In this document: piece after piece, positions 41,945-58,732 of the stretch | How the letters are laid out: every line of letters begins with the position of its first letter | Position numbering within the stretch: the stretch's first letter is position 1 | NCBI GenBank assembly: GCA_965195345.1 | Contig: OZ239628.1 | Coordinates: 1,088,001 to 1,152,000, forward strand | Source: an uncultured Thiomicrospira sp. | GTDB taxonomy: Bacteria; Pseudomonadota; Gammaproteobacteria; CAKMZV01 | Direction of reading: 5' to 3' | DNA length: 64,000 bases | The notes under the pieces: generated by a model | Told to the model about the DNA's origin: nothing | The model's input: only the letters and a program-made list of their open reading frames with translations | Databases searched by the model: none | Made by a program: the position numbers and the translations under genes

Positions 41945-43132
41945 TTAAAACCGGATGTCGTTTATTATGTCGTCTATATGCTCAAGTCCAACAGAGATTC
42001 GAATCATATTTTCTGAAATTCCTGCATTTTCTCGCTCTTGCGCACTCATTCTCCAATGCGTTGTTGTTGCTGGATGCGTAATCGTGCTTTTAGCGTCACC
42101 GAGATTTGCCGTAATAGAAAGAAGTTGACATCTATTTATAAGAGTCCAAGCCTCTTTTCTATCTCCCTTCACCTGAAAGGATAACACACCACCACCGCCA
42201 TCAGGATGCTGTTTTTTTGCCAGCTCTCTTTGAGGATGTGAAGGTAGGGCGGAATAATTAACTTGCTCTACTTGTGGCTGTTCTTGTAACCACAACGCTA
42301 AAGCCAACGCATTATCGCAATGTTTTTGCATACGCAGTGACAATGTTTCAAGGCTTTTGGCAAGCACCCAAGAATTGAAAGCATTCAATCCAGTGCCAGC
42401 GGTACGAACTACACTGTATTGTTCTTTATACAAACTTTCTTGATTAGTAATTAATGCTCCCCCCAAACAACGGCCCTGACCATCGATGAATTTAGTGGCG
42501 GAATGCATTACAACGTCTGCACCAAATTTCAAAGGTTTTTGTAAATGAGGCGTGCAAAAACAATTATCTACAACTAAAAGTGCGTTATTCTCATGCGCAA
42601 TATCAGCCAATACTTGTAAATCCGCTATTTCAGCTGTTGGATTAGCAGGTGTTTCGCAAAATAAAATTTTCGTATCCGAACAAATAGCATCTCGCCACTC
42701 TTGTGCTTCGGACAAAGGTACAAAAGTGGTTTTAATAGCGAATTGCGCCATTAAGTCCCTAAAAAGTCCAATGGTCGTGCCAAAAACGCAATCGGCACAA
42801 ACAACATGATCCCCGCTTTTAAGGTGAGCAAGAGCCATAGTCAAAATAGCCGACATTCCTGTATTTGTCGCTATCCCATAGCTACCTTCTTCTAAAATTG
42901 CTAATCTTCGAGAAAACGTGCTTTCATTGGGATTGCTAAAGCGTGCATATATATTGCCTTCTTCATCGCCTCTAAAACGAGCCGCTGCTTGTTGCGCATC
43001 CTTGAAAACAAAGCTGGAAGTTAAATAAACAGGTTCTGAATGCTCTCCGTGGGGCGAACTTTCAGAGCGCGTTCTCACCGCGCGTGTTTGGCTGTGATAT
43101 TTGCTATAATCTTTTGGACTATTTGAACTCAT
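41945..43132 (-). CDS. metZ: O-succinylhomoserine sulfhydrylase
   Basis: EHSE..YLTSSF, Y.RF.NP, HSATKFIDGQGR.LGG, HPATTTH. Confidence 0.93.
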   Translation of the reverse strand: MSSNSPKDYSKYHSQTRAVRTRSESSPHGEHSEPVYLTSSFVFKDAQQAAARFRGDEEGNIYARFSNPNESTFSRRLAILEEGSYGIATNTGMSAILTMALAHLKSGDHVVCADCVFGTTIGLFRDLMAQFAIKTTFVPLSEAQEWRDAICSDTKILFCETPANPTAEIADLQVLADIAHENNALLVVDNCFCTPHLQKPLKFGADVVMHSATKFIDGQGRCLGGALITNQESLYKEQYSVVRTAGTGLNAFNSWVLAKSLETLSLRMQKHCDNALALALWLQEQPQVEQVNYSALPSHPQRELAKKQHPDGGGGVLSFQVKGDRKEAWTLINRCQLLSITANLGDAKSTITHPATTTHWRMSAQERENAGISENMIRISVGLEHIDDIINDIRF

Positions 43133-43234: not shown

Positions 43235-44386
43235 CTACAAGCGCTTCTTTTTCATGGCATTGTGCCATTCATCTTCTTCAATATGTAAGTAGCGTTGCGT
43301 CGTTTCAAGGCTCTCGTGTCTTGCTGTTGCTTTAAGAAACCGCATATCAACACCGCTATCGGCTAAATGTGTCAAACCAGTGTGTCGCAACCAATGTGTA
43401 GAGGTTTTTCTCAATCGCTCAGCTTCATAAGGATCAACGTGTTCAAGCTCTAATGCAGCTTCAGCAACGCAACCTTTGACAATTCTATAAACCATATCCG
43501 CTGTTATCGCACGAGTTCCATCCAGTGAAGTGAGCAAAGGTTCATGGGAAGAGGGGGTAGGGGTGGCAGGTAGATTGCGGTGTAGTCGATAACGCTCTAA
43601 CGATTTCATCATCTCTTCTGATACGGGGACTTTCCTTGTTTTATTACCTTTTCCATGAATAAGCCACCACCAATTACCCCTGTCTTTGTAAAAACTACTC
43701 ATAGAATGCTTTACCACTTCGCTAACACGAGGCATCTGTAAATAAAGTAATGCAAATAAAAAACGCATTCGTTCCTTTTTGGCGATTTCTTTGGGGTCAT
43801 TAGATTGCTTACTTTCAATAAAGCGCCAAAGGAAATCCCACAGTTCCCGTGGTAGATAGCGCTCAATAGTTGCACGTTTGTCAACATTTCTACGGCCACT
43901 TTTTCCCATCAAGCGTATAGGATTACCTCTGAGATACCCTGCGTCAGTGAGGAATGAGAAACAACGTCCAAGAATAGTTAAAGCTAATTCGCGACTGGGA
44001 TCAGATAATGGACCAGAAAAAGGTTTCCAATGTTTATGATGTCGCGGGCGTTTTGGTCCACACCAAACTTCTGCTGGTGACGGATTACGCATAAAGCGCC
44101 AATAAGCGGTTATGTCCTCAACATCAAGGCTTGATATTGGCTTTCGGCAATCTACCAAGCACCAGCGATACAAACGTTCGACTTCTTTGCGATAGCTTCG
44201 GAAAGTTTGCGGTGAGTCTCGATATAAATTCAACCACGCCCCAATGGCTTCCAAATCATCATCCGCTTTAATCAAAGAAGATGGGGTGGCATTTCGATTA
44301 GTACCGAAACGGCCATTGAGCGTGTCAGGGAGAGTTAATGGCGTTTCAATGGGTTTGATAAGATCTTTGGAATTGTGCATGCGCAT
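43235..44386 (-). CDS. tyrosine recombinase (Xer-like/TnpS-like resolvase type)
   Basis: SAM-like N-terminus (T.RSYRKEVER), catalytic R (PRVSE), K (GKGNK), HWLRH, RH, TQRY all intact. Confidence 0.93.
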   Translation of the reverse strand: MRMHNSKDLIKPIETPLTLPDTLNGRFGTNRNATPSSLIKADDDLEAIGAWLNLYRDSPQTFRSYRKEVERLYRWCLVDCRKPISSLDVEDITAYWRFMRNPSPAEVWCGPKRPRHHKHWKPFSGPLSDPSRELALTILGRCFSFLTDAGYLRGNPIRLMGKSGRRNVDKRATIERYLPRELWDFLWRFIESKQSNDPKEIAKKERMRFLFALLYLQMPRVSEVVKHSMSSFYKDRGNWWWLIHGKGNKTRKVPVSEEMMKSLERYRLHRNLPATPTPSSHEPLLTSLDGTRAITADMVYRIVKGCVAEAALELEHVDPYEAERLRKTSTHWLRHTGLTHLADSGVDMRFLKATARHESLETTQRYLHIEEDEWHNAMKKKRL

Positions 44387-44442
44387 CTCATTAAATTTTC
44401 AATTTAATGATTATAACATCTTGTTAAAAAAGAATATATGTA

Positions 44443-44470
44443 ATTCGTGATTATGAAGATAATCACGAAT
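44443..44470. other. palindromic 11-6-11 recombination site (site A; attL of prophage 1)
   Basis: ATTCGTGATTA-TGAAGA-TAATCACGAAT, perfect inverted arms; the tandem duplication begins inside it. Confidence 0.85.
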
Positions 44471-44856
44471 GGAGGCTAAAAACTGCCGGATATTTAAGCA
44501 ATGAAAACGGAAATAATCGATCAAATTATGAACCGCTTATATCGTTCGAATCTTCTAAAAAATCACGGGTCAAGGAAATGATTGTTGATGAACTTGGTGA
44601 AGTTGGTGCAAATGCTTTAGAACAGCTATACAACAAGTATTTGCGCCCTTATGACGTTAATCAAATAGGCATAAATGGGATATATAGAATTATTAATAAA
44701 TTTGATGCCTCATTCCTCTCTACTTTCGCTTTTAGATTGAAAACAAAAGAATACAGCTTTATCGCTAACGTGATCGCCGACATGCTACGCACGGACGAAT
44801 TAGGCGGTGATGAAACAATGGATATTCCTGTTTTTACCGCCGTGAAAATAGCCTAA
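44455..44856 (+). CDS. 133-codon reading frame open from the att core; candidate alternative repressor C-terminus (ORF track calls 44578-44856)
   Basis: No stop between GAA 44455 and ATG 44578; no start codon upstream; conserved in copy 2. Confidence 0.65.
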   Translation, partial: EDNHEWRLKTAGYLSNENGNNRSNYEPLISFESSKKSRVKEMIVDELGEVGANALEQLYNKYLRPYDVNQIGINGIYRIINKFDASFLSTFAFRLKTKEYSFIANVIADMLRTDELGGDETMDIPVFTAVKIA

Positions 44857-44878
44857 AGCCCCAATATAACGGGGCTTT
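44855..44878. terminator. bidirectional terminator-like hairpin
   Basis: AAAGCCCC-N8-GGGGCTTT between convergent frames. Confidence 0.7.
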
Positions 44879-44898
44879 CAGCGTTCTAAACCTTTGAT

Positions 44899-45258
44899 TT
44901 ACTTCGTCTCGTGATTATCTTCAGAGTTACGAACGTCATCAACCAGTTCAAAGCCAGTATATTGGGCGTATTTATGCGCCCACCATTGAGCGATTGACTT
45001 GTCTTTACGCGGGTCTTTGATCGCTCTTTGATAGTTTGATGCTGCGATCAATGCAAGCGGGTTTTCATTGAGTAAATCAGAGAAAACAAGACATGCACGA
45101 TCATCGAAAGAGTTTATCTCTTTTCTATAGCTTGATAGGGCTTGTTGTGATATTGATGTTTGTTTCCAAATTTTATAATCTGAATTGACACCAAGCGCAT
45201 TTTTAACGCGATCTAAGTATTCCGCCGTTGTTGGTATGTTTAGCATTTTTCCGTCCAT
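44899..45258 (-). CDS. phage HTH repressor (copy 1)
   Basis: YLD..K..LGV.SDY....IS...LS.YR pattern typical of small temperate phage repressors; divergent from early operon. Confidence 0.8.
   Translation of the reverse strand: MDGKMLNIPTTAEYLDRVKNALGVNSDYKIWKQTSISQQALSSYRKEINSFDDRACLVFSDLLNENPLALIAASNYQRAIKDPRKDKSIAQWWAHKYAQYTGFELVDDVRNSEDNHETK
44907..44934 (-). other. second, inverted recombination site (site B) inside repressor 3' end
   Basis: TCTCGTGATTA-TCTTCA-GAGTTACGAAC; 15 bp exact reverse complement of site A spacer plus right arm. Confidence 0.8.
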
Positions 45259-45283
45259 TGGTATAGTACATAATTAAAGTATA

Positions 45284-45360
45284 CAATAAATATGGTTCAA
45301 CCATTACTATGTTATAAACCATAATCATGGTTGACTTATACTCCATAATCATGGTATATT
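45284..45360 (+). promoter_or_regulatory. early promoter with operator repeats (copy 1)
   Basis: TTGACT 45331 / TATATT 45355; CCATAATCATGG at 45319 and 45343, degenerate copies at 45284 and 45301. Confidence 0.75.
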
Positions 45361-45518
45361 CTTGGCATGGACAAAATGCTAAACGAAAAAACCGCCATCA
45401 ATCTATCAAACTCAACGAAATCAAAAGCGGTTATTAGCATACCGTCCATTGATTGGAGAGCGGGCGTTTTTTCTATGGAAACGCCCATTCTCCACCTTTT
45501 AACCAATGGAGCAAACTA

Positions 45519-45734
45519 ATGAGTAAACCTAAACTAACGATAGCAAAATTTAATAAGCAAGGACAAGTTGTCTATTATCTGTACGACAAAAAAGGAAAGC
45601 GATATAAGCTATATCATGATTTTCATTATAGCGATCTGGGCTTATACAAAGTTGATCCAGAATTACATGAACGCTTGAAGTTTGAATTTGGAATCATCAA
45701 CGAAATAATAGATAACGAACCAGGCGAGCGATGA
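45519..45734 (+). CDS. phage early protein (71 aa)
   Basis: GGAG RBS; protein identical in copy 2 from MSKPK onward. Confidence 0.7.
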   Translation: MSKPKLTIAKFNKQGQVVYYLYDKKGKRYKLYHDFHYSDLGLYKVDPELHERLKFEFGIINEIIDNEPGER

Positions 45735-46006
45735 ACACAACGACCAATAACCCTTTAATTGATAGGTTTTTAAAAGCGTCGCAAGAATTGCGTGCTGAAC
45801 AAGAAGCAGTTGAAAAAACCATCATTGAAGCTGGTGGCACTATAACTCCAGAAATGCTATTAGTACCAGAAGAAACCTCAATGAAATATTTAAACGCTTT
45901 AATATCTGTAACAGAACTTGCACGGGCGAGTGAATTCATCCGAGCCGATGTACTTAAACCAGATAGCAAAATTGAAGCAAACATTGCAAGCGAAACAATC
46001 CACTAA
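45731..46006 (+). CDS. phage hypothetical protein
   Basis: ATGA overlap; identical in copy 2. Confidence 0.7.
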   Translation: MNTTTNNPLIDRFLKASQELRAEQEAVEKTIIEAGGTITPEMLLVPEETSMKYLNALISVTELARASEFIRADVLKPDSKIEANIASETIH

Positions 46007-46011
46007 TCAAA

Positions 46012-46284
46012 ATGAGCGCACAAAGTAAAAAAGAGAGTTGGCGCGAGGCGTACAGGAATACCGCGCTGGCTTTCGTTGTGTCGCTATTGGCGCACAAATA
46101 CATAGTAGCCCCTGCTCTATCATGGCACATTGAGCAAGGTGGGGATCAAACAACGTTTATTGTTGCTTTTTTAGTAACCAGCTTCTATACCCTGCTTTCG
46201 CTTGGTCGTAATTATTTCATTAGGCGTATGCACGTTAAAAATAAGGTATTGCCACCGATGCCACCCATCCCACGCGTGAAATGA
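46012..46284 (+). CDS. small phage membrane protein (QSK..S..EA..NT...R.Y.IRR family)
   Basis: Two hydrophobic segments; motif seen in small phage proteins near methylases. Confidence 0.65.
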   Translation: MSAQSKKESWREAYRNTALAFVVSLLAHKYIVAPALSWHIEQGGDQTTFIVAFLVTSFYTLLSLGRNYFIRRMHVKNKVLPPMPPIPRVK

Positions 46285-47108
46285 AGTTGCCTCCGATCCT
46301 TAAATATTTAGGAGGTAAGCACTCTATTGCACCGCAAATAATTGCGCATTTTCCTGATCATCATACATACGTTGAGCCTTTTGGCGGTGCGGGTTCTGTT
46401 CTGTTCAGAAAGGAGCGTTCACGGGTTGAGGTTTACAACGATAAGTATGATCGCATTGTCAATTTGTTTTCTGTTTTGCGTTCTCCTGAACTTTCTGAAA
46501 AGTTACGCTCTTTATTAAAAAATACGCCCTATTCTAAAACTGAATTTTATCGATGTGCAGAGCAATCAGATGATCCAGTTGAAGACGCGCGGCGTCTTTT
46601 TGTAAGCGGGGCAATGTGTTTTGGAGGTTACAACAGTGGCAGAAATAGCATTACAGGATTTGCCCGTACTGCGGACGCAAACATAGCAAAAACTTACGCA
46701 AACAAGATTGAGCAGCTTGAACTTTTTACCGCCCGCCTGCAGGGAGTTACTTTTGAGAACGACAGTGCGGACAGAATAATAGAACTTTGGGATAGTACAA
46801 AAACGCTTTTCTATGTTGATCCGCCCTACTTACCAAGCACACGCAAACAAGCAAAATCCAAACAATATGCATACGAGATGAACGAGATGGATCACGTGGT
46901 GTTATTGGAGAGGTTAAAGAGTTGCGCAGGTATGGTGGTTTTGTCTGGTTATCCCTCTGATCTATATGATGAGTTTTTAGAGGGTTGGGAAACATTAGAC
47001 ATTAATAGCGTTGATGCAGGCAGCAACAAGCGCATTGATCGTGTATGGATAAAGCCAAATTCACACGCCCACCTGCCCCTATTCAATAAAGCGCAGGTAA
47101 TGGCATGA
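46281..47108 (+). CDS. Dam-like (D12 class) N6-adenine DNA methyltransferase
   Basis: YLGGK, YVEPFGGAGSV, VYND, FYVDPPY. Confidence 0.93.
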   Translation: MKLPPILKYLGGKHSIAPQIIAHFPDHHTYVEPFGGAGSVLFRKERSRVEVYNDKYDRIVNLFSVLRSPELSEKLRSLLKNTPYSKTEFYRCAEQSDDPVEDARRLFVSGAMCFGGYNSGRNSITGFARTADANIAKTYANKIEQLELFTARLQGVTFENDSADRIIELWDSTKTLFYVDPPYLPSTRKQAKSKQYAYEMNEMDHVVLLERLKSCAGMVVLSGYPSDLYDEFLEGWETLDINSVDAGSNKRIDRVWIKPNSHAHLPLFNKAQVMA

Positions 47109-47320
47109 AAAACTATACAAAATCAGATGCAACGCACTTACTGCAATGCCGTAGCTTTAATGGCAGTGTTGGAATTGATTATTCTATGGATTGCTTGCCA
47201 TTAAAAACAACAAAGAGAGGTATGGCTAAAGTTGTGGTTTTTGGTTTTCGTAGCTTTGTATCAGAGGATGTAAGGATCAGATATGTTAAACCTGATAGAT
47301 TGATCGAGAAAAGTAAATGA
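47105..47320 (+). CDS. phage hypothetical protein
   Basis: Operonic overlap; conserved in copy 2. Confidence 0.65.
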   Translation: MKNYTKSDATHLLQCRSFNGSVGIDYSMDCLPLKTTKRGMAKVVVFGFRSFVSEDVRIRYVKPDRLIEKSK

Positions 47321-47658
47321 TCCAGCGCGTTAATCAAGATGTCTTTAATAGTGATTTTAAAACGCTTGTGAATGTAACCGTTGGCGAATGTACGCCTATT
47401 GCCAGCACTTATTTAATTCGTGGTATTGATTTTGTTGTGGTTGTGTTGTCGTGTGATCTGATTCATTTGAATGAAGAATTACAGCGCATTCCAGAACACG
47501 GCTTATTCAATGTGCATACTTTTTCAGTGTTCAATGCTGAAAAACGCGAAGCGGATGCCGGCAGGACAGAAGATGCGATCCATGCCAACCGCATTTATAA
47601 CTCGCGAGTTGAATACTATAAAAGCATAGAGTATCAAAAAGTGCAGGGCTTGACGTGA
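47317..47658 (+). CDS. phage hypothetical protein
   Basis: Operonic overlap; conserved in copy 2 with mostly synonymous changes. Confidence 0.65.
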   Translation: MIQRVNQDVFNSDFKTLVNVTVGECTPIASTYLIRGIDFVVVVLSCDLIHLNEELQRIPEHGLFNVHTFSVFNAEKREADAGRTEDAIHANRIYNSRVEYYKSIEYQKVQGLT

Positions 47659-49205
47659 TGAGCGATTATTTTTCGCCCTTACCGCCCGCCCTCGCCCGCA
47701 TTGGCAATGCGCTTTCAGAAAATTACAAAGACTTTGAAGACTTTGAAAAAGGTTTTCAAGATGCGCCGTGCAGCCTTGATCTTGATGCTATTGAAAACGC
47801 CGGCGATCACATGGCGCATAAATGCTACGGCGCGCGTCTGCGCAACGGGGAAAAAGCTGTTTATGGCGTTGTGGGCGATGAATGCAGTAAATGGCGGGGC
47901 TATGCGGGGCTAACGCACACGGATGATGCCCTACTCGCCCGCGCTGAATCCTCAAGCTACTGGCGCAAGAAATGGAAGCAAGCAACGCTTCGCTGGTGGG
48001 CGCATACATTGATGAAAGAGGGATTAAACGCCAATTACATTGCTGATGATGTAGTCAACTTGGTAAATGAAGCACAAAAGCGTAGTAATAATTTGATGGC
48101 ACAGATGGTTGCCACGCATGAAGAGATGCCCACGTCTGCAAATACGATGGTATTACAAGATGCAATTGATAAATCGGTTAGTAATCCGCACATAAAGAAA
48201 GCAGAATTGATTGTGCGCCTGCGCGGTGCGCAGAAGTATGCGGATGAATTCGGGTATGTTTGCACATTCGTTACAGTTACAGCACCGTCAAAGTATCACG
48301 CGAGCAAATCAAGCAATCCAGATATAGACAATGCACCGCTTGAGAGCAATCCAAAGTATGAAGATTTTACCCCCCGCGAGACGTCTCAATATTTGGGGCT
48401 TGTGTGGAAGCGAGTGCGGGCGAAGTTTGGTCGCGATTGTTTAGATTATTTCGGTTTGCGGGTTGCTGAACCGCATCGCAACGGCACACCGCACCACCAT
48501 TATGTGATCTTTCACAAAAAAGAAGATACACAGCAGATGCGCGCCGTATTTCTTCATCAGGGACTAAAAGCGAGTGCGGGCGAATATGGAAGTAATCACC
48601 GCATTAAATTCAAAGCAATAGATCGCTCGCGGGGCGATGTTATTGCATACCTAATCAAATATTTAGCAAAGAACATACACAGCAGACGCGCGCCCCGCGA
48701 TTTATACGGAAATATTGGTTATGATGAAGCGTTGAAAGCGGTGACAGCGTGGGCAAAAGTCTGGGGTATTCGCCAGTTTGATCCCATAGGGATTCAACCT
48801 GTAGGCGTTTGGCGGGAATTACGGCGGGCATCGCGTGATTATTGCGGACGCAACGCCCGCAAGATTGCAGGCGACAAGTACCGCCCATTACGACAAGCAA
48901 TGCAGGCATCCACAGACGGCGATTATTATCGCTATATGAAGTTGATGCACCGCTACAGTAAAAAAATACGCCTATTGAAAGAAACAGTAAAAAACAAATA
49001 TGATGAAGATGTAACAAAAACGCAGGGGCTTTTATTTAAGGAAGCCAAGCCCGTCCAGATAATTACGCGCTTTATTAAATGGGTAATTGGAAAGGCAGAA
49101 GATTTGCTCGATGAAGCAGAACTTGAAGCATGGCAAATGAAGCAGCAGACGCAGGCGGGTATGCAGGCGATCGCGGGCGTTCGCCCCGCTGTAATGCAGT
49201 TATGA
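47655..49205 (+). CDS. rolling-circle replication endonuclease (P2 gpA-like HUH)
   Basis: FVTVTAPS.YH, GLRVAEPH..GTPHHH, Y..KY.AKNI, AWA..WGIRQF, WRELRR. Confidence 0.93.
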   Translation: MMSDYFSPLPPALARIGNALSENYKDFEDFEKGFQDAPCSLDLDAIENAGDHMAHKCYGARLRNGEKAVYGVVGDECSKWRGYAGLTHTDDALLARAESSSYWRKKWKQATLRWWAHTLMKEGLNANYIADDVVNLVNEAQKRSNNLMAQMVATHEEMPTSANTMVLQDAIDKSVSNPHIKKAELIVRLRGAQKYADEFGYVCTFVTVTAPSKYHASKSSNPDIDNAPLESNPKYEDFTPRETSQYLGLVWKRVRAKFGRDCLDYFGLRVAEPHRNGTPHHHYVIFHKKEDTQQMRAVFLHQGLKASAGEYGSNHRIKFKAIDRSRGDVIAYLIKYLAKNIHSRRAPRDLYGNIGYDEALKAVTAWAKVWGIRQFDPIGIQPVGVWRELRRASRDYCGRNARKIAGDKYRPLRQAMQASTDGDYYRYMKLMHRYSKKIRLLKETVKNKYDEDVTKTQGLLFKEAKPVQIITRFIKWVIGKAEDLLDEAELEAWQMKQQTQAGMQAIAGVRPAVMQL

Positions 49206-49212
49206 ACAAGCC

Positions 49213-49252
49213 AACGCGGGCGGGCGTTCCAAAGCTCTACCCGCGTTTTTTT
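49213..49252 (+). terminator. intrinsic terminator after rep
   Basis: AACGCGGG...CCCGCGTT stem plus T run. Confidence 0.7.
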
Positions 49253-49263
49253 GGTTTTTCTTA

Positions 49264-49290
49264 AAACTTGGACTTGTATCAATAACTGTA
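49264..49290 (+). other. putative rolling-circle origin (nick site)
   Basis: AAACTTG/GACTTGTATCAATAACTGT resembles the P2 ori (CCTCG/GAGTCCTGTCAATAAC) and phiX174 ori (CAACTTG/ATATTAATAAC) as recalled; identical in copy 2. Confidence 0.7.
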
Positions 49291-49348
49291 CGGAGATTTA
49301 GAAGAAAGGAAATATTTACCAGGGCAAAAAAATAATTAGAGGTGGTCA

Positions 49349-49525
49349 ATGGAAAAAATAGAAATTTACGAAGAAGCTTCTGAAATTGAGGAGGCTACCA
49401 CGCGCATACTGCAAAGCATGAAAGCGCAATTATTGCCTGCAGAAGTACGGACGTTGTTACAGCGCACAGCTGTATTGAATTTAAGAATGGCAAGCGCGAT
49501 TAAAAAACTACAGGAGGAGCGGTAA
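49349..49525 (+). CDS. 58-aa phage protein (not in ORF track)
   Basis: GAGGTG RBS, MEKIEIYEE...LQEER; TAATG overlap with next gene. Confidence 0.7.
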   Translation: MEKIEIYEEASEIEEATTRILQSMKAQLLPAEVRTLLQRTAVLNLRMASAIKKLQEER

Positions 49526-49758
49526 TGACGGAATTTATATGCAAGGCGGTTATAGATGGATTGGATTCAGAAATATACAAGAATACTCAAAACAGGCTAT
49601 ATGCGAAAAATGTTAATGGCATGATGAGTTTTCAAACGAAGAAAGGACAAGCACACCTTCAAAGCCTGATTGACAAGGCAAACAAAGTGCCACCGCCTGC
49701 AACAGATGACAATTCACAAGAGGATGATCCAGATGATGATAGTATCTTCTTAATTTAA
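49525..49758 (+). CDS. phage hypothetical protein with acidic tail
   Basis: GGAGG RBS; located where PM2-like viruses place small regulators. Confidence 0.6.
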   Translation: MTEFICKAVIDGLDSEIYKNTQNRLYAKNVNGMMSFQTKKGQAHLQSLIDKANKVPPPATDDNSQEDDPDDDSIFLI

Positions 49759-49767
49759 AGGTAGAAC

Positions 49768-50229
49768 ATGAGCAAAGAAAACACAAACACCATTGATACC
49801 AGTGATGAAACCATCAATAAAGGCTGGGACACGATAGAAACTACTATTATTGATAATCCTGTCATTGATCCAATTGAACCAGATGAACAAGCAGAAGAAC
49901 AAGCAGCTGAACACGATGATGCAGAATGCGCGGATATGCTTTATAAAATGCTGAAAATGGGACTGGGTAACAGCAAAGTCAATGTTGATATTACGAAAAT
50001 AGATGAAGAAATAATGAAATGCGCTCAATCATGGAATGCTTTTATTAACAAAAGATTTGGTGGTATGCATGGTTTTCTTGAACGCTACGGCGTTGAAGTA
50101 ATGATGGTATTCAATACAGGATATTTGCTTTTTACAGCAGCTGATCATAGAAAAGCACCCACTGATCAAGAAGAGGTCAAAGCTGGTGCAGCACCTAAAA
50201 CAACCACGCAAACAATAGACCCATTATGA
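49768..50229 (+). CDS. acidic protein preceding packaging ATPase
   Basis: Acidic N-terminus, hydrophobic C-terminal stretch; position typical of PM2-like proviruses. Confidence 0.65.
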   Translation: MSKENTNTIDTSDETINKGWDTIETTIIDNPVIDPIEPDEQAEEQAAEHDDAECADMLYKMLKMGLGNSKVNVDITKIDEEIMKCAQSWNAFINKRFGGMHGFLERYGVEVMMVFNTGYLLFTAADHRKAPTDQEEVKAGAAPKTTTQTIDPL

Positions 50230-50885
50230 GAAAAGACGGAAAAATCACGCTTATATTAGGCGTTACTGGATCGGGTAAAACATCGATCGCAAAGGCTTTG
50301 ATGAAATCGCACAAGCGTATATTAGCGTATGATCCAAAACTGGAATTTTGCCAGTTATCAGGATTTGTTAAAACAGAAAGCCAACGTCAATTGTTGGAAA
50401 AACTAAAAGCAACAAAGGCAAGTGGGCGAATCGCGCATTGTGTCGCGCAATCCTCGAAAGAATTTGACTTTTTCACGCGATGCTTTAGCAATTGGGCGCG
50501 TCAAAAGGAATGCACGGCCGTTGTTGAAGAATTAGCAGCTGTTACCAGTGTAGGAAAGGCGCGCGATGGTTGGAATATAGCAGTCAATCAATCAAGAGCA
50601 TTAGGAGCTAATGTATTAGTTTTGGCACAAAAACCCGAAGAGATAGATAAAAGCACACTGGATCAAGCAAAAGAGATTTATTGTTGTCAAGTGTCGGCGA
50701 AGACTGCAAGCTATATGGGCGATCGCTTTGGATTAGATGCTAAAGCATTAAAATCATTTCCAAGTGAACCATTGAAGTTTATTCGCATAATTGCAGGTAA
50801 AGGATTAGATTTGTCGAATGGTAAAATTCAATTCAAAGATAAAGAACCGATGCTTTACAATGGGAAGAAAGAATTAAAGGGGTAG
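50226..50885 (+). CDS. FtsK/HerA-type genome packaging ATPase (PM2 P9-like)
   Basis: Walker A GVTGSGKT, Walker B VVEE, SR..G....AQ.P..IDK; 219 aa with no Zot-like TM. Confidence 0.9.
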   Translation: MRKDGKITLILGVTGSGKTSIAKALMKSHKRILAYDPKLEFCQLSGFVKTESQRQLLEKLKATKASGRIAHCVAQSSKEFDFFTRCFSNWARQKECTAVVEELAAVTSVGKARDGWNIAVNQSRALGANVLVLAQKPEEIDKSTLDQAKEIYCCQVSAKTASYMGDRFGLDAKALKSFPSEPLKFIRIIAGKGLDLSNGKIQFKDKEPMLYNGKKELKG

Positions 50886-50887
50886 AG

Positions 50888-51145
50888 ATGAGCACAAACA
50901 AACAAGCATTAGCAATATTTGAGAACGACAAGCTAAACCATGTTTTATATGGTGCAGTTGCGGGCGGTCTTGGTATAGCTATGACTGGATCAATGACGGG
51001 TGGCTTGTTCGTTTCGGCTCTTGTTGCTGGTGGCGTTGAAATCTACGATTATGTTACAGGACGAGGAACGTCTTCTTTTCTTGATTTTCTCGCAACGATC
51101 AGCATCCCTGCTTTGTTATTCGCGGTTGAGTTGCTTATTAAGTAA
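50888..51145 (+). CDS. small VanZ-like membrane protein
   Basis: DK..H...G, E..D...G......D..AT pattern. Confidence 0.6.
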   Translation: MSTNKQALAIFENDKLNHVLYGAVAGGLGIAMTGSMTGGLFVSALVAGGVEIYDYVTGRGTSSFLDFLATISIPALLFAVELLIK

Positions 51146-51172
51146 CAATCCCCCCAACCGCGAAAACATGTG

Positions 51173-51197
51173 AAGCACCCTGCGGGGTGCTTTTTTT
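51173..51197 (+). terminator. intrinsic terminator
   Basis: AAGCACCC-TGCG-GGGTGCTT plus T run. Confidence 0.8.
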
Positions 51198-51237
51198 ATT
51201 CTTTATTTATCGGGTCGTCATTTTTCTGTATTTCATA

Positions 51238-52554
51238 TCATAGATGATCTTTAGGATCGAAGTCTTCAGGAAAAATTGTGTGGCTGTTATAAGTAGCCCC
51301 TTTTAAATTCGCCTTTTGTAAATTTGCGTATTCTAAATTCGCCTCTTTTAAATTCGCACCTTCTAAATTCGCCTCTTTTAAATTCGCCTCTTTTAAATTC
51401 GCCTCTTTTAAATTCGCCTCTTTTAAATTCGCCTCTTCTAAATTCGCCTCTTGTAAATCCGCCCCTTGTAAAATCGCCCTTTCTAAATTCGCCACTTGTA
51501 AATCCGCCCCGTATAAATTCGCCCCTTTTAAATCCGCCCCGTATAAATTCGCCACTTGTAAATCCGCCCCTTTTAAATTCGCCCCTTTTAAATCCGCATC
51601 AAATAAAGACGCCTTTTGTAAATTCGCCCTTTCTAAATTCGCCTCTTGTAAATTCGCATAAAATAAAACCACCATTTCTAAATACGCCTCTTTTAAATTC
51701 GCCTCTTTTAAATTCGCCTCTCTTAAATTCGCCCTTTCTAAATTTGCCTTTTCTAAATTCGTTTCTTTTAAATTTGCCTTTTCTAAATCCGCCCCATGTA
51801 ACTTCGCCCTTTCTAAATTCATCCCTCCTAAATCCGCCACTTGTAAATTTGCAACCTCTGACGCATCTATTTTCTTACTCTGTTGTAGTGTTGGCATTGT
51901 TGGTTTATTGGCTCTTTCGGTGCTCGTGAGTATCAAGCCTCTAGTAATACTATCAATCTGCTCGCTAAAAGCGGGATAATTTCTTTTTAATATTGCTAAT
52001 GACTTAACACCAATACAACGACTCACTAATTCAGGTGATGCCAGTAAATTATAGCCATGAGATAGTGTTGATGTGTTGATGCTCTCGTCTGTTTTTTCAA
52101 CTTGCTCCTGTGATTTTTCAATCTGATTTTGTGATATTTCAATCTGAATTTGTGTTTTTTCAATTTGTTCTCTGGTGTCATTTGTTCTGAAGTACCACAA
52201 ACCAATTAATACAGGGAGAGATAGTAATAGAAAGCGCATAGAGTGTCCTGCATAATTATTTTCGTCAGTGATTTTCCAAATATCTAAAATAAATTTAGTT
52301 ATCTCAGTAGCAGATAGGAAACCCAATACAGCTAATGCAGAAAGGAAGAACAATCGATTCATCTTTTTTTCAGATGGTTTTTCTGGATTCTTCATGAAAA
52401 AATACACTACGAAGAATGTAGCGAAATATGAAAGGCAGTAGAGAAGGAGCACTAAAGGACTTTTAATTCCCGTTTGTTTAAGCGTTTCCATTGTTCTTCC
52501 GTTTAGAACAAGCATTAAAGAATCTATATTTTCCGTTTGTATTAACCATTCCAT
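51238..52554 (-). CDS. membrane-anchored pentapeptide repeat protein (prophage cargo)
   Basis: Three hydrophobic segments, short coiled coil, then >30 A(N/D)Lxx repeats. Confidence 0.9.
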   Translation of the reverse strand: MEWLIQTENIDSLMLVLNGRTMETLKQTGIKSPLVLLLYCLSYFATFFVVYFFMKNPEKPSEKKMNRLFFLSALAVLGFLSATEITKFILDIWKITDENNYAGHSMRFLLLSLPVLIGLWYFRTNDTREQIEKTQIQIEISQNQIEKSQEQVEKTDESINTSTLSHGYNLLASPELVSRCIGVKSLAILKRNYPAFSEQIDSITRGLILTSTERANKPTMPTLQQSKKIDASEVANLQVADLGGMNLERAKLHGADLEKANLKETNLEKANLERANLREANLKEANLKEAYLEMVVLFYANLQEANLERANLQKASLFDADLKGANLKGADLQVANLYGADLKGANLYGADLQVANLERAILQGADLQEANLEEANLKEANLKEANLKEANLKEANLEGANLKEANLEYANLQKANLKGATYNSHTIFPEDFDPKDHL

Positions 52555-52635
52555 TGTTCTTTTCCTTTTTATTTTGGTTTTGTTAGATTATCAAGTGAAT
52601 TTTACCCTCTCCGTCTGCGAAAGTTAAAAAAGTGC

Positions 52636-52666
52636 TTGACACGCGTCTGCATGTGTTTTGTATAAG
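52636..52666 (+). promoter_or_regulatory. candidate promoter of structural operon
   Basis: TTGACA-19 bp-TATAAG upstream of P7-like/capsid genes. Confidence 0.45.
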
Positions 52667-52708
52667 TCGCTTTTAATTATTAAATGGCTGTTTTACTTTG
52701 GAGAAAGA

Positions 52709-52834
52709 ATGAACAAAAGCACAATGAAAACGATTACGGGCGTAGTATTTACTGCTGCGGTCGCATTCGCAACGGTTGCAATTGCAACGCGTTTTAAGCC
52801 AGCACGCAAAGTGTTGAACGTTGACAACTATTAA
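52709..52834 (+). CDS. 41-aa membrane protein, PM2 P7-like (not in ORF track)
   Basis: MNKSTMKTITGVVFTAAVAFATVAIATRFKPARKVLNVDNY; GGAG RBS; immediately upstream of capsid gene as in PM2. Confidence 0.75.
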   Translation: MNKSTMKTITGVVFTAAVAFATVAIATRFKPARKVLNVDNY

Positions 52835-52843
52835 GGGGTTGCA

Positions 52844-53623
52844 ATGAGAATTAGACAACAAAAACTTGATTCGCCTAATGGAGGCGGATTTGATAACGAT
52901 TTTATTTTTACCCTGCCAAAAGGCATCAGCATTCATGAAGTGGCATTCGTGCTTTCTGCAATGGCTATAAGTGATGTCAAAAAGGTAGTGGTTGAAATAG
53001 ACGGCGTTACTAATGTTGAATGCAGTGGAGAAGATTTGTCCCTATTGCAAGCACTCTACTCAAAACCACAAAAAGACAACACTCTGATTATTCCTTTTTC
53101 AGGGCAAAACAGTCAAACGTGGCAAGGAGCAATAGACGGACTATTGACAATATTACCAAATGAACAATGCGTTATCCGCTTAAGCATTGGTGCTGGTAAT
53201 GGTAATGGTAATCCCTCAGTTGATGGTTTCATCCGTTATCAGTTTGCAACAGCTCGCACGGCATTACCAAGAATACAACGCATTCCCCTGCCCCAAGTTG
53301 AGATTGGCGAGCGTTTGTTTTCTTACCCCCATGCACGCCGTTTTGTTCGCACAATGATATTGACTGGTGGCGCACCTGATAAATTCAAGATTGTGCAAAA
53401 CGGGCAAGCGTTGTTTGTAACGACCGATGAATTAAATCGTTTCATGTTAGAGCGCAACGGGCTAACGCCTCAAGACGGGCATTTTGCATTTGTTCCAGCA
53501 ATGGAAGGTTTTGAAGCGGCTGACAAGCTCAATGGTGCTAATGCACGTATTGAATTTTCAGCAACGCAAGCGGGTGCAACGTCTGTGCTTATTCATACGA
53601 TCGAGCCTACTCAAGCGCAGTAA
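52844..53623 (+). CDS. double jelly-roll major capsid protein (PM2 P2-like)
   Basis: 259 aa beta-rich; aligns by eye with recalled PM2 P2 (L.S..., LP.G, K.V.VE.DG, N...LE..G, F..EG). Confidence 0.85.
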   Translation: MRIRQQKLDSPNGGGFDNDFIFTLPKGISIHEVAFVLSAMAISDVKKVVVEIDGVTNVECSGEDLSLLQALYSKPQKDNTLIIPFSGQNSQTWQGAIDGLLTILPNEQCVIRLSIGAGNGNGNPSVDGFIRYQFATARTALPRIQRIPLPQVEIGERLFSYPHARRFVRTMILTGGAPDKFKIVQNGQALFVTTDELNRFMLERNGLTPQDGHFAFVPAMEGFEAADKLNGANARIEFSATQAGATSVLIHTIEPTQAQ

Positions 53624-53970
53624 TGAGTAAACTTTCGTTGAATGACATCATTCGAGGCGGTCAAGACATCACCCGCGATATTGAAAACGCGGGTGATACT
53701 GATATTAGCAACGAGATAGGCAATGCAGGAACACGCTTATTGAATGAACCAATCAAATATTCACCCATCCACCCTACACAAGCAAGCATTGCGGGAAGCG
53801 AGCCTATTCATAAAACAGGCGCGCCATTGGCATTGTTTGGTGCAGGTGCGGGAGTTGGTGCGGGATATGGTTTATCGCAAGCCCTATCCTCCCCCATTGG
53901 GAAAGTAGGCTTGGCAGTGGTTGCTACTGTATTGGGTGCATTTGTAATTAAACGGTTTAAGTTAGCATGA
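53623..53970 (+). CDS. virion membrane protein (P3-like position)
   Basis: C-terminal TM plus basic tail, directly after capsid gene. Confidence 0.6.
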   Translation: MSKLSLNDIIRGGQDITRDIENAGDTDISNEIGNAGTRLLNEPIKYSPIHPTQASIAGSEPIHKTGAPLALFGAGAGVGAGYGLSQALSSPIGKVGLAVVATVLGAFVIKRFKLA

Positions 53971-54185
53971 TCTCGCCACTCGGACCCGTTTCAGCAGGTG
54001 GCGATATTTCGCCTGATCTATCATCAACCGCAACAAGTGGTGATGCAAGCAATGATAGTGAAAATAACTTTAGCTTTGGAGATAAGCACATCAACAACGG
54101 CGCGCAAGGCATTCCAGCATGGATTGCTGTTGCAGGTGGTATTTTAATCGCAGGTGGATTATGGTTTTTTGGACGGCGGGCATAG
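53967..54185 (+). CDS. virion membrane protein, PM2 P8-like
   Basis: Gly/Ser-rich SS.ATSG...FG then C-terminal TM and basic end. Confidence 0.7.
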   Translation: MISPLGPVSAGGDISPDLSSTATSGDASNDSENNFSFGDKHINNGAQGIPAWIAVAGGILIAGGLWFFGRRA

Positions 54186-54517
54186 ATGAAACATTTGTGC
54201 CTGCAGGCATTAAAAAAGCACTTGGTAATGCAATCAATGCAATCAAGATTGAATGTATCAAGGGCGTTTGTCAATGCTGGAAATTTAACAATGGGCGTTT
54301 CATTACCCGCATTGAGCATAAGGAGTTAGTGATCGTGGCATTCACTGGACGCAATACTTCAAATGTTTTTTCAGCAATCTATCAATCTGCAAAGAATGGT
54401 GGTTTTCAATCGATCCGCATTCACACGAACAATCCAAAATGGGTGCGCTTTATTCGCATTAAAGGGTTTGTATTTGATGAATTAGCAAGCGGTGTATATC
54501 AGTTGGAGGTTGCGTAA
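54119..54517 (+). CDS. conserved corticovirus-type protein (GNAT-like pattern)
   Basis: SIR.HT......R.....GF motif; located between P8- and P10-like genes; start uncertain. Confidence 0.55.
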   Translation: MDCCCRWYFNRRWIMVFWTAGIDETFVPAGIKKALGNAINAIKIECIKGVCQCWKFNNGRFITRIEHKELVIVAFTGRNTSNVFSAIYQSAKNGGFQSIRIHTNNPKWVRFIRIKGFVFDELASGVYQLEVA

Positions 54518-54933
54518 TGGGCGGTAGTAGCAGGAGCAGAACGTCCTCAGATGTTTACAATCAACAGCAGGATAGATCGGTTGTTTTTGCACCAAGTGGT
54601 AACGGAAATCAAACGGCCGTAACGGGCAATGTTGGCGGTGATGTAGTTATTGAGAACACGGATCATGGCGCAATTGAAGCCTCGTTTAGCTTTGGCGAGC
54701 GCATTGGCGCATTGGCGATTGATAGAAGTGCCGATTCAGCAGAGTTTGCAATTGAGGCGGTACAAGATGCCCATCGTGAAGCAAGCGAAAGCGCAAGCGA
54801 GCAAAACAAAGCATTCAGTGGCGCAATCAGTGCATTCAAATCAGAAACGCAAGGGCTTGGTAAAAACCTCTTGATCGTTAGCGGAGCGGGCGCGTTTTCT
54901 TTAGTAGCGATTGTATTTTTAATTAAGAAATAA
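54517..54933 (+). CDS. virion membrane protein, PM2 P10-like
   Basis: MGGSS.S.TSS, TDHGAI, C-terminal TM. Confidence 0.7.
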   Translation: MGGSSRSRTSSDVYNQQQDRSVVFAPSGNGNQTAVTGNVGGDVVIENTDHGAIEASFSFGERIGALAIDRSADSAEFAIEAVQDAHREASESASEQNKAFSGAISAFKSETQGLGKNLLIVSGAGAFSLVAIVFLIKK

Positions 54934-54934
54934 C

Positions 54935-55366
54935 ATGGCAAGAATAAACATAAAAGCGCATGGCGCGATCGATTTACCAATCAATCAGCGATTTATTCTT
55001 TTTCTTAGTAGTTCACGTGCAACTATTGAAGGCGTGCGGATCACTCGAGGATTAACAGTTGAGCGTTCAGATATAGAGCCACTAATCCGCATTGAAAATC
55101 CAAGCACCACTTCTACAACAATTGATTATGTCATAAGTGGCAACCGCATTATTATCCCTGTCAATGATGTAGTAATCAGCGAAGCAATAGCAATTAGTAA
55201 TGCGGTAGAAATTGCCAATGCTGTTGAAATAAAAAACCAAATATCAGAGGCAAAAATTGCGCGCAGTGTCGTCATTGGTAACTACTACATAGCGCATCCT
55301 GATGAAGTGCCAGAGGCAGAACATCCAGCAGACTTGCAAAAAATATTAGAGAAAATCGGAGTTTAA
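54935..55366 (+). CDS. putative penton/vertex protein
   Basis: Beta-rich N-terminus, I.N.V.I repeats; position before spike gene. Confidence 0.45.
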   Translation: MARINIKAHGAIDLPINQRFILFLSSSRATIEGVRITRGLTVERSDIEPLIRIENPSTTSTTIDYVISGNRIIIPVNDVVISEAIAISNAVEIANAVEIKNQISEAKIARSVVIGNYYIAHPDEVPEAEHPADLQKILEKIGV

Positions 55367-55368
55367 CA

Positions 55369-55881
55369 ATGGCAAACAAATATCAATCTTACGAAGAACG
55401 ACAAAACGATCGCATTAGCGCATTGGAGCAAGTCAATGGTATAGAGGTCGATGATGGCAATGTTGGCATACCGTCTATCAAAGGCGAGCAAGGCGAAAAA
55501 GGCGAGCAAGGCATACAGGGCGTACAGGGCGTACAGGGCGAAAAAGGCGACAACGGTGCAGATGGGATAACGACTAACTATATTGATATAGACGTTGTAA
55601 AAAACCAGACCTACATAATTCCGCACTCGCTTGGTGCATTGCCTAAAGGCGTACAGTTGTCCGTAAAGATTACCGATGCTGAACGTAGTGATTTTTCTGT
55701 TAACAAATGGCGTTTAATTTCTTCTCCAACGGATTTTTGGAGCGGTCGCCAGCATCATGTAGGCGCAATAGTGGCAATAAATGTTTCAGAAATAGAGATA
55801 CAAACGGGGAATTTACTCTACCACGATGAATCAGACGATACGTCCATGGATGCTGGAACTGTCCGCGTCACTTATTTTTAA
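55369..55881 (+). CDS. collagen-repeat spike/fibre protein
   Basis: G-X-Y run (GEQGEKGEQGIQGVQGVQGEKGDNGADG) then beta-rich head with HSLG..P. Confidence 0.75.
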   Translation: MANKYQSYEERQNDRISALEQVNGIEVDDGNVGIPSIKGEQGEKGEQGIQGVQGVQGEKGDNGADGITTNYIDIDVVKNQTYIIPHSLGALPKGVQLSVKITDAERSDFSVNKWRLISSPTDFWSGRQHHVGAIVAINVSEIEIQTGNLLYHDESDDTSMDAGTVRVTYF

Positions 55882-55896
55882 TTTATAAGGAAAAAA

Positions 55897-56286
55897 ATGA
55901 GCAAATTTTTAGCATTTAACAAAAAAGGCGAGTGTGTAAGTATTGTTGATGAAAAAGTATTTCTAAACACAACCTATGCAGAAGCCCCTAAAGGCGCAAA
56001 TAAAAGAAACTTCACGAACTATGTTATTCGTGATGATGGAACAGTAGAGGAAAAATCAAAAAAAGAAATAGAACAAGAAGCAGTTGCAGGCTTATTGGCG
56101 GGCATAAAAGAAAGACGTAATGCCCTGCTCGCCCGCTCCGACTGGACACAATTGGCAGATGTTGCATTGAGTAATGAAGCAGGTGTGGAATGGACGCAAT
56201 ACCGCGCAAAGTTGCGTGCAATTGCTGATGGGATAACAACAGCCAAAGAAGCGGATGCCGTTGTTTTTCCTGATGAGCCTGCCTAA
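55897..56286 (+). CDS. tail-fibre assembly chaperone-like protein
   Basis: RN.LL..SDWTQL.D....W..YR..LR.I......FP..P. Confidence 0.8.
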   Translation: MSKFLAFNKKGECVSIVDEKVFLNTTYAEAPKGANKRNFTNYVIRDDGTVEEKSKKEIEQEAVAGLLAGIKERRNALLARSDWTQLADVALSNEAGVEWTQYRAKLRAIADGITTAKEADAVVFPDEPA

Positions 56287-56438
56287 TGGGTCAAGCTGTT
56301 GGATTTATTGCAGGATTTGCTATTGTGTATTTACTTTTATCGATAAAACCAACGGATAAACAGCTTGCAGAAAGTGGCAACACGATAGCACAAAAACGTG
56401 TTAATCATGATTATGTTAATGAATTTGGCAAGTTGTGA
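56286..56438 (+). CDS. 50-aa membrane protein (not in ORF track)
   Basis: MGQAVGFIAGFAIVYLLLSIK...; TAATG and GTGA overlaps with both neighbours. Confidence 0.65.
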   Translation: MGQAVGFIAGFAIVYLLLSIKPTDKQLAESGNTIAQKRVNHDYVNEFGKL

Positions 56439-56935
56439 AAGTAGGTTTATTTGCAGGCGCATTGCTTGCAGTTTTAGTCTTTTATTTAGGGAAAGAAATG
56501 CAAAGAAGAAAACCAAGAGGAATTAGAAATAATAACCCTGGGAACATAACGATAAATTTTAGCAATCGTTGGAAAGGTTCAATTCCACGCTCCCAAAACA
56601 CAGACGGTCGTTTTGTCCAGTTTATGACGATGGAAGCAGGCGTGCGCGCTATGACGATTGTGATCATCAACTACTACAAACGTGGATTGACGACAATACG
56701 CGAAATGATTTCAACTTATGCGCCCTCTTTTGAAAACAGAACGGACGCTTATATTGATCACGTTGAAGATCGGATTGACATTGATGAAAATCAACATCTT
56801 GATCGGGATATGTTCATTGAAAAGATACCGCTAATTGTCAAGGCAATAATCAGACATGAAAACGGCGAAACCATTGATCCTCAAGAAGTTTCAGCAGGTG
56901 TTTTTATGGGTAAAAAAGATAAAGGATTTTTATGA
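56435..56935 (+). CDS. membrane-anchored virion lysozyme-like protein (PM2 P5-like)
   Basis: RGIRNNNPGNI, F.....G.RA, YAP..EN.T.AY, AII.HENG. Confidence 0.85.
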   Translation: MKVGLFAGALLAVLVFYLGKEMQRRKPRGIRNNNPGNITINFSNRWKGSIPRSQNTDGRFVQFMTMEAGVRAMTIVIINYYKRGLTTIREMISTYAPSFENRTDAYIDHVEDRIDIDENQHLDRDMFIEKIPLIVKAIIRHENGETIDPQEVSAGVFMGKKDKGFL

Positions 56936-58690: not shown

Positions 58691-58732
58691 AGCCCAAATA
58701 TAACGGGGCTTTCAGCGTTCTAAACCTTTGAT

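Follow-up and report, generated by a model that had tools for sequence, protein, structure and literature searches.

A lone XerL/TnpS-like tyrosine recombinase with an adjacent palindrome: a probable single-recombinase dif/Xer system exploited by integrase-less tailless phages

How chromosome dimers are resolved in proteobacteria without XerCD was reportedly left as an open question by Carnoy and Roten in 2009. In the literature found, it has been answered for Legionellales only, and the locus described here would extend the single-recombinase palindrome solution to another uncultured gammaproteobacterial lineage. The closest described system is XerL/dif with the integrase-less phage LME-1, in which a single tyrosine recombinase likewise serves a genome without XerC and XerD (Nicholson et al., mBio 2022, PMC9765430). 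Its dif consists of uninterrupted, perfect inverted arms, 10–12 bp long in Legionellales by description, and lies tens of kilobases from the maximum of the cumulative GC skew. LME-1 carries a partial mimic of the site; after its insertion dif is intact on the upstream side, and the downstream site is modified and recombines poorly. Three substitutions in that downstream site markedly reduced excision (PMC9765430, Results). Here we report a locus of similar anatomy in a 64,000-nucleotide stretch of DNA (the window; contig OZ239628.1, positions 1,088,001 to 1,152,000) from an uncultured Thiomicrospira sp., whose closed chromosome of 1,920,693 bp (39.8% G+C) is a single contig. The locus comprises a gene for a tyrosine recombinase of 383 amino acids, a 28-bp palindrome with 12-bp arms beside it, again tens of kilobases from the skew maximum, and a stack of integrase-less, tailless PM2-like prophages with an intact site upstream and modified sites downstream, which presumably recombine poorly as well.

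We propose, with a probability of roughly 70%, that the recombinase and the adjacent palindrome constitute the chromosome-dimer resolution system of the host, that is, a single-recombinase dif/Xer system of the XerL kind derived from a TnpS-type resolvase module with its core site upstream of the gene, and that the integrase-less phages exploit this site. The anatomy, conservation, genome context and homologies of the locus were established directly. Coordinates are collected in the table below.

The palindrome can be read in an 11-6-11 form, ATTCGTGATTA-TGAAGA-TAATCACGAAT, as a preliminary description of this DNA correctly had it. In fact its arms are longer: in the 12-4-12 form, ATTCGTGATTAT-GAAG-ATAATCACGAAT, the 12-bp arms pair perfectly around a 4-bp centre. 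It lies upstream of the recombinase gene, 56 bp from the start codon. The 28-mer had a single match in the window at up to 3 mismatches, against none in 100 shuffles, and a single match in the 1.92-Mb genome even at up to 6 mismatches. In an alignment of seven orthologues of the recombinase, the candidate catalytic residues R220, K249, H331, R334, H357 and Y366 were invariant. The closest solved structure by sequence was E. coli XerD (expectation value (E) 8.5e-11), and the XerH structure matched at E 5.8e-5.

The preliminary description had suggested that this host might resolve chromosome dimers with one TnpS-like recombinase and that the phages had adapted to its site. The inventory of Xer proteins supports this suggestion. 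A genome-wide model search revealed no XerC or XerD above the cut-offs; both best matches were the 383-amino-acid recombinase, which scored 82 bits with the XerC model (cut-off 335) and 77 bits with the XerD model (cut-off 330). Scored on the protein itself, the XerC and XerD models reached 88 and 81 bits, again far under the cut-offs, and the XerS model, which was scored on this protein alone, reached 38 bits. The 22-mer core of canonical dif was absent from the genome at up to 3 mismatches, whereas the same query gave one match in each of four Halomonadaceae control genomes. The Pfam domain PF00589 had four matches genome-wide; besides the recombinase, which is not duplicated, these were a P4-type integrase by tRNA-Ile, a split P4-type integrase by tRNA-Met and a divergent protein of 431 amino acids. 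The genome encodes RecA and FtsK with a gamma domain, and chromosome dimers are therefore expected to form. Since the genome holds no other Xer, these results support the recombinase as the proposed sole dimer resolver. XerD above the cut-off was likewise found in none of five relatives (G001–G004 of the same family and G033 of another family), and in the two genomes of the same genus, G001 and G002, the recombinase orthologue was the sole XerD-like match.

The recombinase and the site are conserved where the phage is absent. The phage coat gene occurred only in the host genome, that is, in 1 of the 61 genomes searched and in none of the 60 others. Recombinase orthologues were present in all four same-family genomes, with identities of 60% in G001 and G002 and of 59% and 51% in the other two; outside the family, identity was 52% in G033 and 47% in G005. 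In all five phage-free relatives (G001–G004 and G033), both the recombinase gene and the 28-mer were single copy, and a reversed control 28-mer had no match. The 28-mer varied among them in its 4-bp centre and, in G001, in one arm base. The site is unoccupied in G001 and G002, where it directly adjoins orthologues of the genes to the right of the prophage stack, and all three genomes of the genus share the synteny of the host genes on this right flank. Orthologues in phage-free relatives, together with an empty conserved site, indicate that the recombinase is not phage cargo and that the site is a conserved chromosomal locus. A site pattern like that of the host was absent from G005, G066, G067, G068 and G077, in which any sites have diverged. 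A simple inversion relating the host genome to G002 was considered and rejected, the site centre being flipped relative to the shared flank. In G033, five tandem 57-bp units lie by the intact 28-bp site (L017 1500-1850), each starting with a near-perfect right arm (CTAATCACGAAT); these units could be footprints of repeated recombination or accessory binding sites.

The site also lies near the presumed replication terminus, as the preliminary description would lead one to expect. The cumulative GC skew of the host chromosome has its maximum at 1,198,000 and its minimum at 228,000, and the site complex (1,132,443-1,160,617) is 37–66 kb from the maximum, or about 33 kb when the phage DNA is discounted. 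For G002, the skew was sampled in 20 windows of 20 kb and in one contiguous stretch of 140 kb. The sampled skew turns from positive to negative between 1.28 and 1.365 Mb, an interval that contains the site (1,347,524); in the contiguous profile the skew peaks at 1,324,000, stays flat until 1,356,000 and then drops, which places the site about 23 kb from the local maximum. In published work, dif lies 35–43 kb from the skew switch in L. pneumophila, and the distance ranges from 89 bp to 79 kb among other Legionella (PMC9765430, Results and Table S1); it is generally 388 bp to 57 kb in Proteobacteria, and up to 90 kb in Helicobacter (PMC2731167). The offsets in the host genome, G001 and G002 fall inside this range. 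Two other landmarks were tried and rejected: dnaA (C1:414595-415890) as a proxy for the origin, lying 186 kb from the skew minimum (~228,000), and gene-strand bias as a means of placing the terminus of the host chromosome, the bias being too weak. The gene is thus of little use for marking the origin in this lineage; in G001 and G002, only 250–280 kb separate it from the dif-like site.

The junctions of the prophages bear the marks of insertion at this site. The genome holds three copies of the centre with the right arm, TGAAGATAATCACGAAT: two at window positions 44454 and 58288 and one, beyond the window, at genome position 1,160,601. To the left of the second and third copies, a degenerate arm, TAAGTTGCGTA, replaces the host left arm. 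The first junction (J1) is thus the perfect palindrome, and the second and third (J2 and J3) are identical hybrids; in J2, the left arm is phage-derived and matches the host arm at 4 of 11 bases (7/11 changed), and the centre and right arm are intact. The identity between the junctions extends 12 bp beyond the right arm because those bases are phage DNA, not host DNA. The preliminary description had held that the junction keeps one good arm and that insertions can stack at a perfect left site; our analysis confirmed the anatomy and added the remnant of a third prophage.

No integrase was detected in prophage 1, either by Pfam (0 of 26 open reading frames (ORFs)) or among the integration and excision families of PHROGs (0 of 24 ORFs), and none of the four PF00589 matches lies inside a prophage. 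The recombinase thus stands outside the repeated phage unit, as first described. Both units encode a coat protein, Rep, packaging ATPase, Dam methylase, helix-turn-helix (HTH) repressor, spike, endolysin and holin, and the P2 coat, ATPase, rolling-circle Rep and unit lengths of 13.8–14.3 kb are traits of PM2-like phages (Corticoviridae/Vinavirales). The nearest records were Vibrio elements of 12–15 kb at 21–25% identity, and no relative of the coat protein was found in the viral_contigs collection. The units align at 88–99% over most of their length but differ by 479 bp in length, by a non-homologous stretch, by an insertion of ~700 bp and in their pentapeptide-repeat cargo, which is only 79% alike. 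These differences in length, segments and cargo indicate two related phages and not a simple duplication. The ~4 kb to the right of J3 starts with the same 29-bp core, carries three tandem pentapeptide-repeat genes and contains a 200-bp stretch 89% identical to the prophage. This region is what is left of an older, third member of the phage family, which implies at least three integrations. Prophage 1, nearest the intact site, is probably the most recent insertion. With a perfect J1 followed by the hybrids J2 and J3 and no integrase of their own, the prophages have the anatomy of integrative mobile elements exploiting Xer (IMEX), with dif flanking provided that the 28-bp site is dif.

Several smaller features of the prophages were also noted. 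The pentapeptide-repeat cargo of prophage 1 lies on the opposite strand (window 51238-52554, minus), as do the different, likewise long cargo gene of prophage 2 at L132 7422-8891 and the remnant genes at L132 15301-18424; the sequences suggest that this cargo may be retained after loss of the phage genes. Near its right end, prophage 1 has three 46-bp direct repeats (window 57997-58147), about 140 bp short of the junction, which may serve as accessory or iteron-like sites, and its last ORF contains an 18-bp coding repeat (KAPAKR-like, DUF1388; window 57774-57917). Free phage genomes with the mimic site were sought and rejected: the 12 exact 17-mer matches in viral_contigs had unrelated flanks, and 7 came from one phage family. 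By our rough estimate, twelve is close to chance expectation for a collection of this size. Public sequencing runs were examined as assembled contigs. In one of these, 58285 is joined to 44452, as either J2 or a phage circle would give, and a low-depth contig of run X4 leads from the core at 44482 to the right flank of J3 and could be a prophage-free joint or, with a shared core of 31 bp that is about the assembly word size, a chimera. Neither was used as evidence.

A maximum-likelihood tree groups the 383-amino-acid protein with XerL-type proteins (support 94/99) and separates it from XerC/XerD as well as from the integrases of the genome. Within this clade, its own subclade (99/95), drawn from unclassified gammaproteobacteria with small genomes, is sister to the XerL-type proteins, and four more complete genomes of the subclade had no XerD-like match at E 1e-30 or better. 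The XerL-type proteins in the tree come from Rickettsiella, Aquirickettsiella, Coxiellaceae, Legionella and metagenome-assembled genomes (MAGs) of Legionellales, and their C-terminal ...SSAITDxYIDIE motif matches, by eye, the XerL of Coxiella and Aquicella in Table S3 of PMC9765430. With a XerL-type protein of Legionella sp., a comparator other than L. pneumophila lpg1867, the identity was 30% (E 4e-47). Identity to the Tn4401 tyrosine-type resolvase was 33% (E 8e-56) across the whole protein, so that the earlier label "TnpS-like" was apt. The name TnpR usually implies a serine resolvase; the "Tn4401 family resolvase TnpR" of Klebsiella plasmids (L159 1922-3637) is a protein of 571 amino acids whose C-terminal 370 residues are a tyrosine recombinase of the same superfamily.

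An alignment query of genome_contigs found relatives of this superfamily at more than 580 loci, where an earlier single-protein query had given no matches. Their hosts include Competibacteraceae, Thioalkalispiraceae, Salinisphaera, Halomonadaceae, Methyloversatilis, Zoogloea and Variovorax, and homologues occur in 1,864 plasmid records, among them megaplasmids of Burkholderia, Cupriavidus and Ralstonia at ~40% identity. Of 80 related loci examined, 45 carry a palindrome 32–284 bp upstream of the gene, 12-4-12 in form and of the type ATTC[A/G][A/T/G]GAT...; elsewhere in the 360 kb of these loci the pattern had no match. The arms covary symmetrically between groups, with CGTGAT, CATGAT or CAAGAT on both sides, as would be expected if a single protein binds the site in two copies.

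Several observations weigh against a role of the system in dimer resolution. Location alone is weak evidence: about 7% of the host genome lies as near the skew maximum (33–66 kb) as the site does, and in G001 the peak at ~140,000, 22 kb from the site at 117,953, is only a local maximum within the 140 kb examined. The adjacency of gene and site is not kept in the genus. The recombinase gene is flanked in the host by the gene of a Cys/Met-metabolism pyridoxal phosphate (PLP) enzyme on one side and by the prophage on the other, and the PLP enzyme gene, the metZ of the preliminary description, is syntenic with the recombinase in G001 and G002; in both, this block lies ~50 kb from the empty site, so that the metZ–recombinase–site synteny envisaged earlier did not hold. 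The original host-side right junction of the prophage stack is no longer recognisable. Finally, four Halomonadaceae genomes encode canonical XerC, XerD and dif together with a homologous recombinase–palindrome module 4–11 kb from dif. Given these modules and the plasmid and transposon homologues, family membership alone is not proof of chromosome-dimer resolution.

The Halomonadaceae modules (L147-L150, on Vreelandella, Kushneria and Halomonas chromosomes) lie in a conserved gene block with a divergent gene for a KfrA_N coiled-coil protein, and, besides the 12-4-12 palindrome upstream of the recombinase, they often have a second palindrome of the TAATTACGTAAT... type. Judged by its sequence, the module looks like a chromosomal TnpS/TnpT-rst-like module beside dif.

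We regard even the strongest alternative as unlikely. Under it, the recombinase and palindrome would be a resident TnpS- or plasmid-type resolvase module, either a domesticated or leftover part of a mobile element or one with another terminus-linked role; the phages would borrow it as a host integrase, and dimers would be handled otherwise or tolerated. The abundance of homologues on plasmids, including the Tn4401 resolvase and megaplasmid recombinases, is in keeping with this view, as is the Halomonadaceae module, which coexists with XerCD/dif and has a divergent, helper-like KfrA_N gene as in TnpS/TnpT-rst (PMC7157771). It is harder to reconcile with a lineage that has RecA and no other Xer, or with a single-copy site whose arms are conserved across two families apart from one base change in G001, which lies near the skew switch in three genomes and which persists even 50 kb from the gene. 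Moreover, no transposase or helper gene accompanies the recombinase in the host genome.

A second alternative, which we consider improbable, is that the palindrome is mainly an operator of the recombinase gene and that the phages integrate by an activity of their own, such as an unrecognised small-ORF integrase or the Rep nickase targeting the site. The distance of 56 bp to the start codon would suit an operator, 12 of the 24 prophage 1 ORFs scanned had no PHROGs family match, and the phage encodes an HUH-type Rep (Phage_GPA). However, the site has kept its arms in G001 and G002 at ~50 kb from the gene, which indicates more than a promoter element, and a promoter and terminator scan around it gave no match, with no sigma-70-like site at the palindrome. 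Exact reciprocal hybrid junctions that share the centre and one arm are, moreover, the signature of a tyrosine-recombinase crossover and not of nicking and joining by Rep. That the tandem prophages are an assembly artefact or a simple duplication is very improbable: the repeats are long and similar and the public data are at contig level, but the units differ by 479 bp, in non-homologous segments and in cargo genes at 79% identity, a contig from an independent run continues from the end of prophage 1 into the start of a phage, and the chromosome is one closed contig.

We therefore favor dimer resolution by the single recombinase, and we infer binding, catalysis, resolution and the order of strand exchange from the sequences in the following model. 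On each sister chromosome, one recombinase monomer would occupy each of the two identical 12-bp arms, and the resulting complex would swap strands across the 4–6-bp centre, so that dimers made by RecA would be resolved near the terminus. The circle of a PM2-like phage would carry a mimic of the site in which the centre and right arm are those of the host and the left arm is degenerate. The host recombinase would cross this mimic with dif in their common centre and thereby insert the phage, rebuilding a perfect dif on the recombinase side and leaving a one-armed hybrid on the far side. The hybrid, with 7 of its 11 left-arm bases changed, would recombine poorly with dif, giving a stable prophage. 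The rebuilt dif would stay functional and accept the next phage at the left end, which would build up a stack of at least three.

A wider reading is possible, and we put it forward tentatively. XerL would not be an invention of Legionellales but a fast-evolving branch of a resolvase-type superfamily that also holds the Tn4401 resolvase, TnpS-like proteins and megaplasmid recombinases, each with an upstream palindromic core site; the module would have replaced XerCD/dif repeatedly, and tailless phages would have followed through one-armed mimics. Candidate lineages for such a takeover are (i) the present lineage with its small-genome relatives (10 genomes without XerD), (ii) probably Methyloversatilis and Zoogloea, and (iii) XerL-type carriers outside Legionellales, such as Microbulbifer. 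The Halomonadaceae copy 4–11 kb from canonical dif may be a frozen intermediate of the process.

Some further observations concern these lineages. Microbulbifer, Pseudohongiella and a Hahellaceae MAG (L193, L197, L199, L211) encode XerL-type recombinases that share 54–61% identity with a query of the Legionellales type; the family has been described as confined to Legionellales (PMC9765430). Methyloversatilis universalis (G044) has no XerD above the cut-off (best match 83 bits), and its recombinase homologue (2,089,490-2,090,650) lies at 51% of the scaffold counted from dnaA. A Zoogloea MAG (G075) had no XerD-like match at E 1e-30 or better. Aromatoleum, a relative, was listed in 2009 as lacking dif/Xer (PMC2731167).

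Table. Features of the locus and of a Halomonadaceae comparison locus (window positions unless stated otherwise)
Feature	Position	Strand	Basis or remark
Cys/Met-metabolism PLP enzyme, host gene flanking the recombinase	41945..43132	minus	Pfam PF01053, E 1.2e-129
Tyrosine recombinase, 383 amino acids, XerL/TnpS-like superfamily, proposed sole Xer of the genome	43235..44386	minus	Pfam Phage_integrase, E 5.6e-20
Intact 28-bp palindrome, proposed dif and left junction J1 of the prophage stack	44443..44470	none	ATTCGTGATTATGAAGATAATCACGAAT
Prophage 1, PM2-like (corticovirus-type), tailless	44454..58287	+	13,834-bp unit
Prophage 1 HTH repressor	44899-45258	minus	
Prophage 1 Dam methylase	46281-47108		Pfam MethyltransfD12
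Prophage 1 rolling-circle Rep, P2 gpA-like, HUH-type	47655-49205		Phage_GPA, E 2.5e-53; PHROGs nickase
Prophage 1 packaging ATPase, small	50226-50885		weak P-loop Pfam matches and PHROG 2666
Prophage 1 pentapeptide-repeat cargo	51238-52554	minus	Pfam Pentapeptide
Prophage 1 double-jelly-roll coat, PM2-type	52844-53623		P2_N, E 7.6e-13; P2_C, E 2.2e-16; PHROGs major capsid protein
Prophage 1 collagen-like spike	55369-55881		
Prophage 1 endolysin	56435-56935		PHROGs
Prophage 1 holin	56932-57345		PHROGs
Hybrid junction J2	58277..58304	none	TAAGTTGCGTA-TGAAGA-TAATCACGAAT, read directly from the sequence
Prophage 2, related PM2-like	58288..64000, on to genome 1,160,600	+	14,313-bp unit, ends at J3
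L148 dif	L148 4550		Halomonadaceae example
L148 recombinase	L148 9974-11209		Halomonadaceae example
L148 palindrome	L148 11223		Halomonadaceae example
L148 KfrA_N gene	L148 11373-12458		Halomonadaceae example

This study also has implications beyond the host lineage. Homology to transposon and plasmid resolvases suggests an origin for XerL-type systems, and the gene with its upstream 12-4-12 palindrome is a signature that can be searched for. With three successive insertions still in place, the stack offers a clear natural case of a double-stranded DNA phage, tailless and integrase-less, that behaves as an IMEX. The small size of the 28-bp site and the 383-amino-acid enzyme suits direct heterologous work.

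Four groups of known systems invite comparison. (i) In the TnpS/TnpT-rst module of Tn4651-type transposons of the Tn3 family, the recombinase gene and a divergent helper gene flank the crossover repeat (PMC7157771). The present locus resembles it in its homologous recombinase (compared with the Tn4401 resolvase, not with Tn4651 TnpS), in the palindromic core directly upstream and in the expected resolution between direct repeats (PMC7157771). It differs in that the host genome has no Tn3-type transposase, terminal repeats or helper, a tblastn search of it with E up to 1 having given no homologue of a KfrA_N helper-like protein, and in that its site holds a conserved place on the chromosome, near the terminus. 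(ii) XerS/difSL of streptococci and XerH/difH of Campylobacter and Helicobacter are also single-recombinase dimer-resolution systems with the site linked to the gene. In contrast to the present system, they belong to different recombinase families, and their dif arms are only partly symmetric (PMC9765430). (iii) IMEX phages at the dif of XerCD, namely CTXphi-type filamentous phages and tailless NO16-like or PM2-like vibriophages, share the lack of an integrase or a possible dependence on the host, a dif-like site and tandem occupancy (PMC9966536, PMC11630473). These phages, however, target a two-recombinase XerCD site; among the tailless vibriophages, which are of the double-jelly-roll type, many have integrases, and for them the mechanism is stated to be inconclusive (PMC9966536, PMC11630473), whereas here a single-recombinase palindrome is occupied by phages with no integrase. 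(iv) XerL/dif and LME-1 are the closest, and differ in several respects: XerL-type proteins share only 30% identity with the present recombinase, which falls in a sister subclade; gene and site are more than 400 kb apart in L. pneumophila and adjacent here; and LME-1 is a T7-like podovirus with three substitutions in its mimic (PMC9765430), whereas the present phages are tailless and PM2-like, with 7 of 11 left-arm bases changed and three stacked insertions. In the LME-1 record, the 22-bp att was not identifiable among the palindromes.

In the literature from 2022 on, with subscription journals outside the coverage, we found neither an extension of XerL beyond Legionellales nor a link to TnpS-type resolvases, and the XerL paper itself does not mention TnpS or Tn3 (PMC9765430). 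A perfect-palindrome dif served by a single recombinase and hijacked by an integrase-less phage is already known from Legionellales (PMC9765430), and the present locus is a variant of it that introduces no new principle. What is new here is a sister-clade recombinase 30% identical to the XerL type, its homology to Tn4401 and megaplasmid recombinases, and the presence of an upstream palindrome in 45 of 80 relatives.

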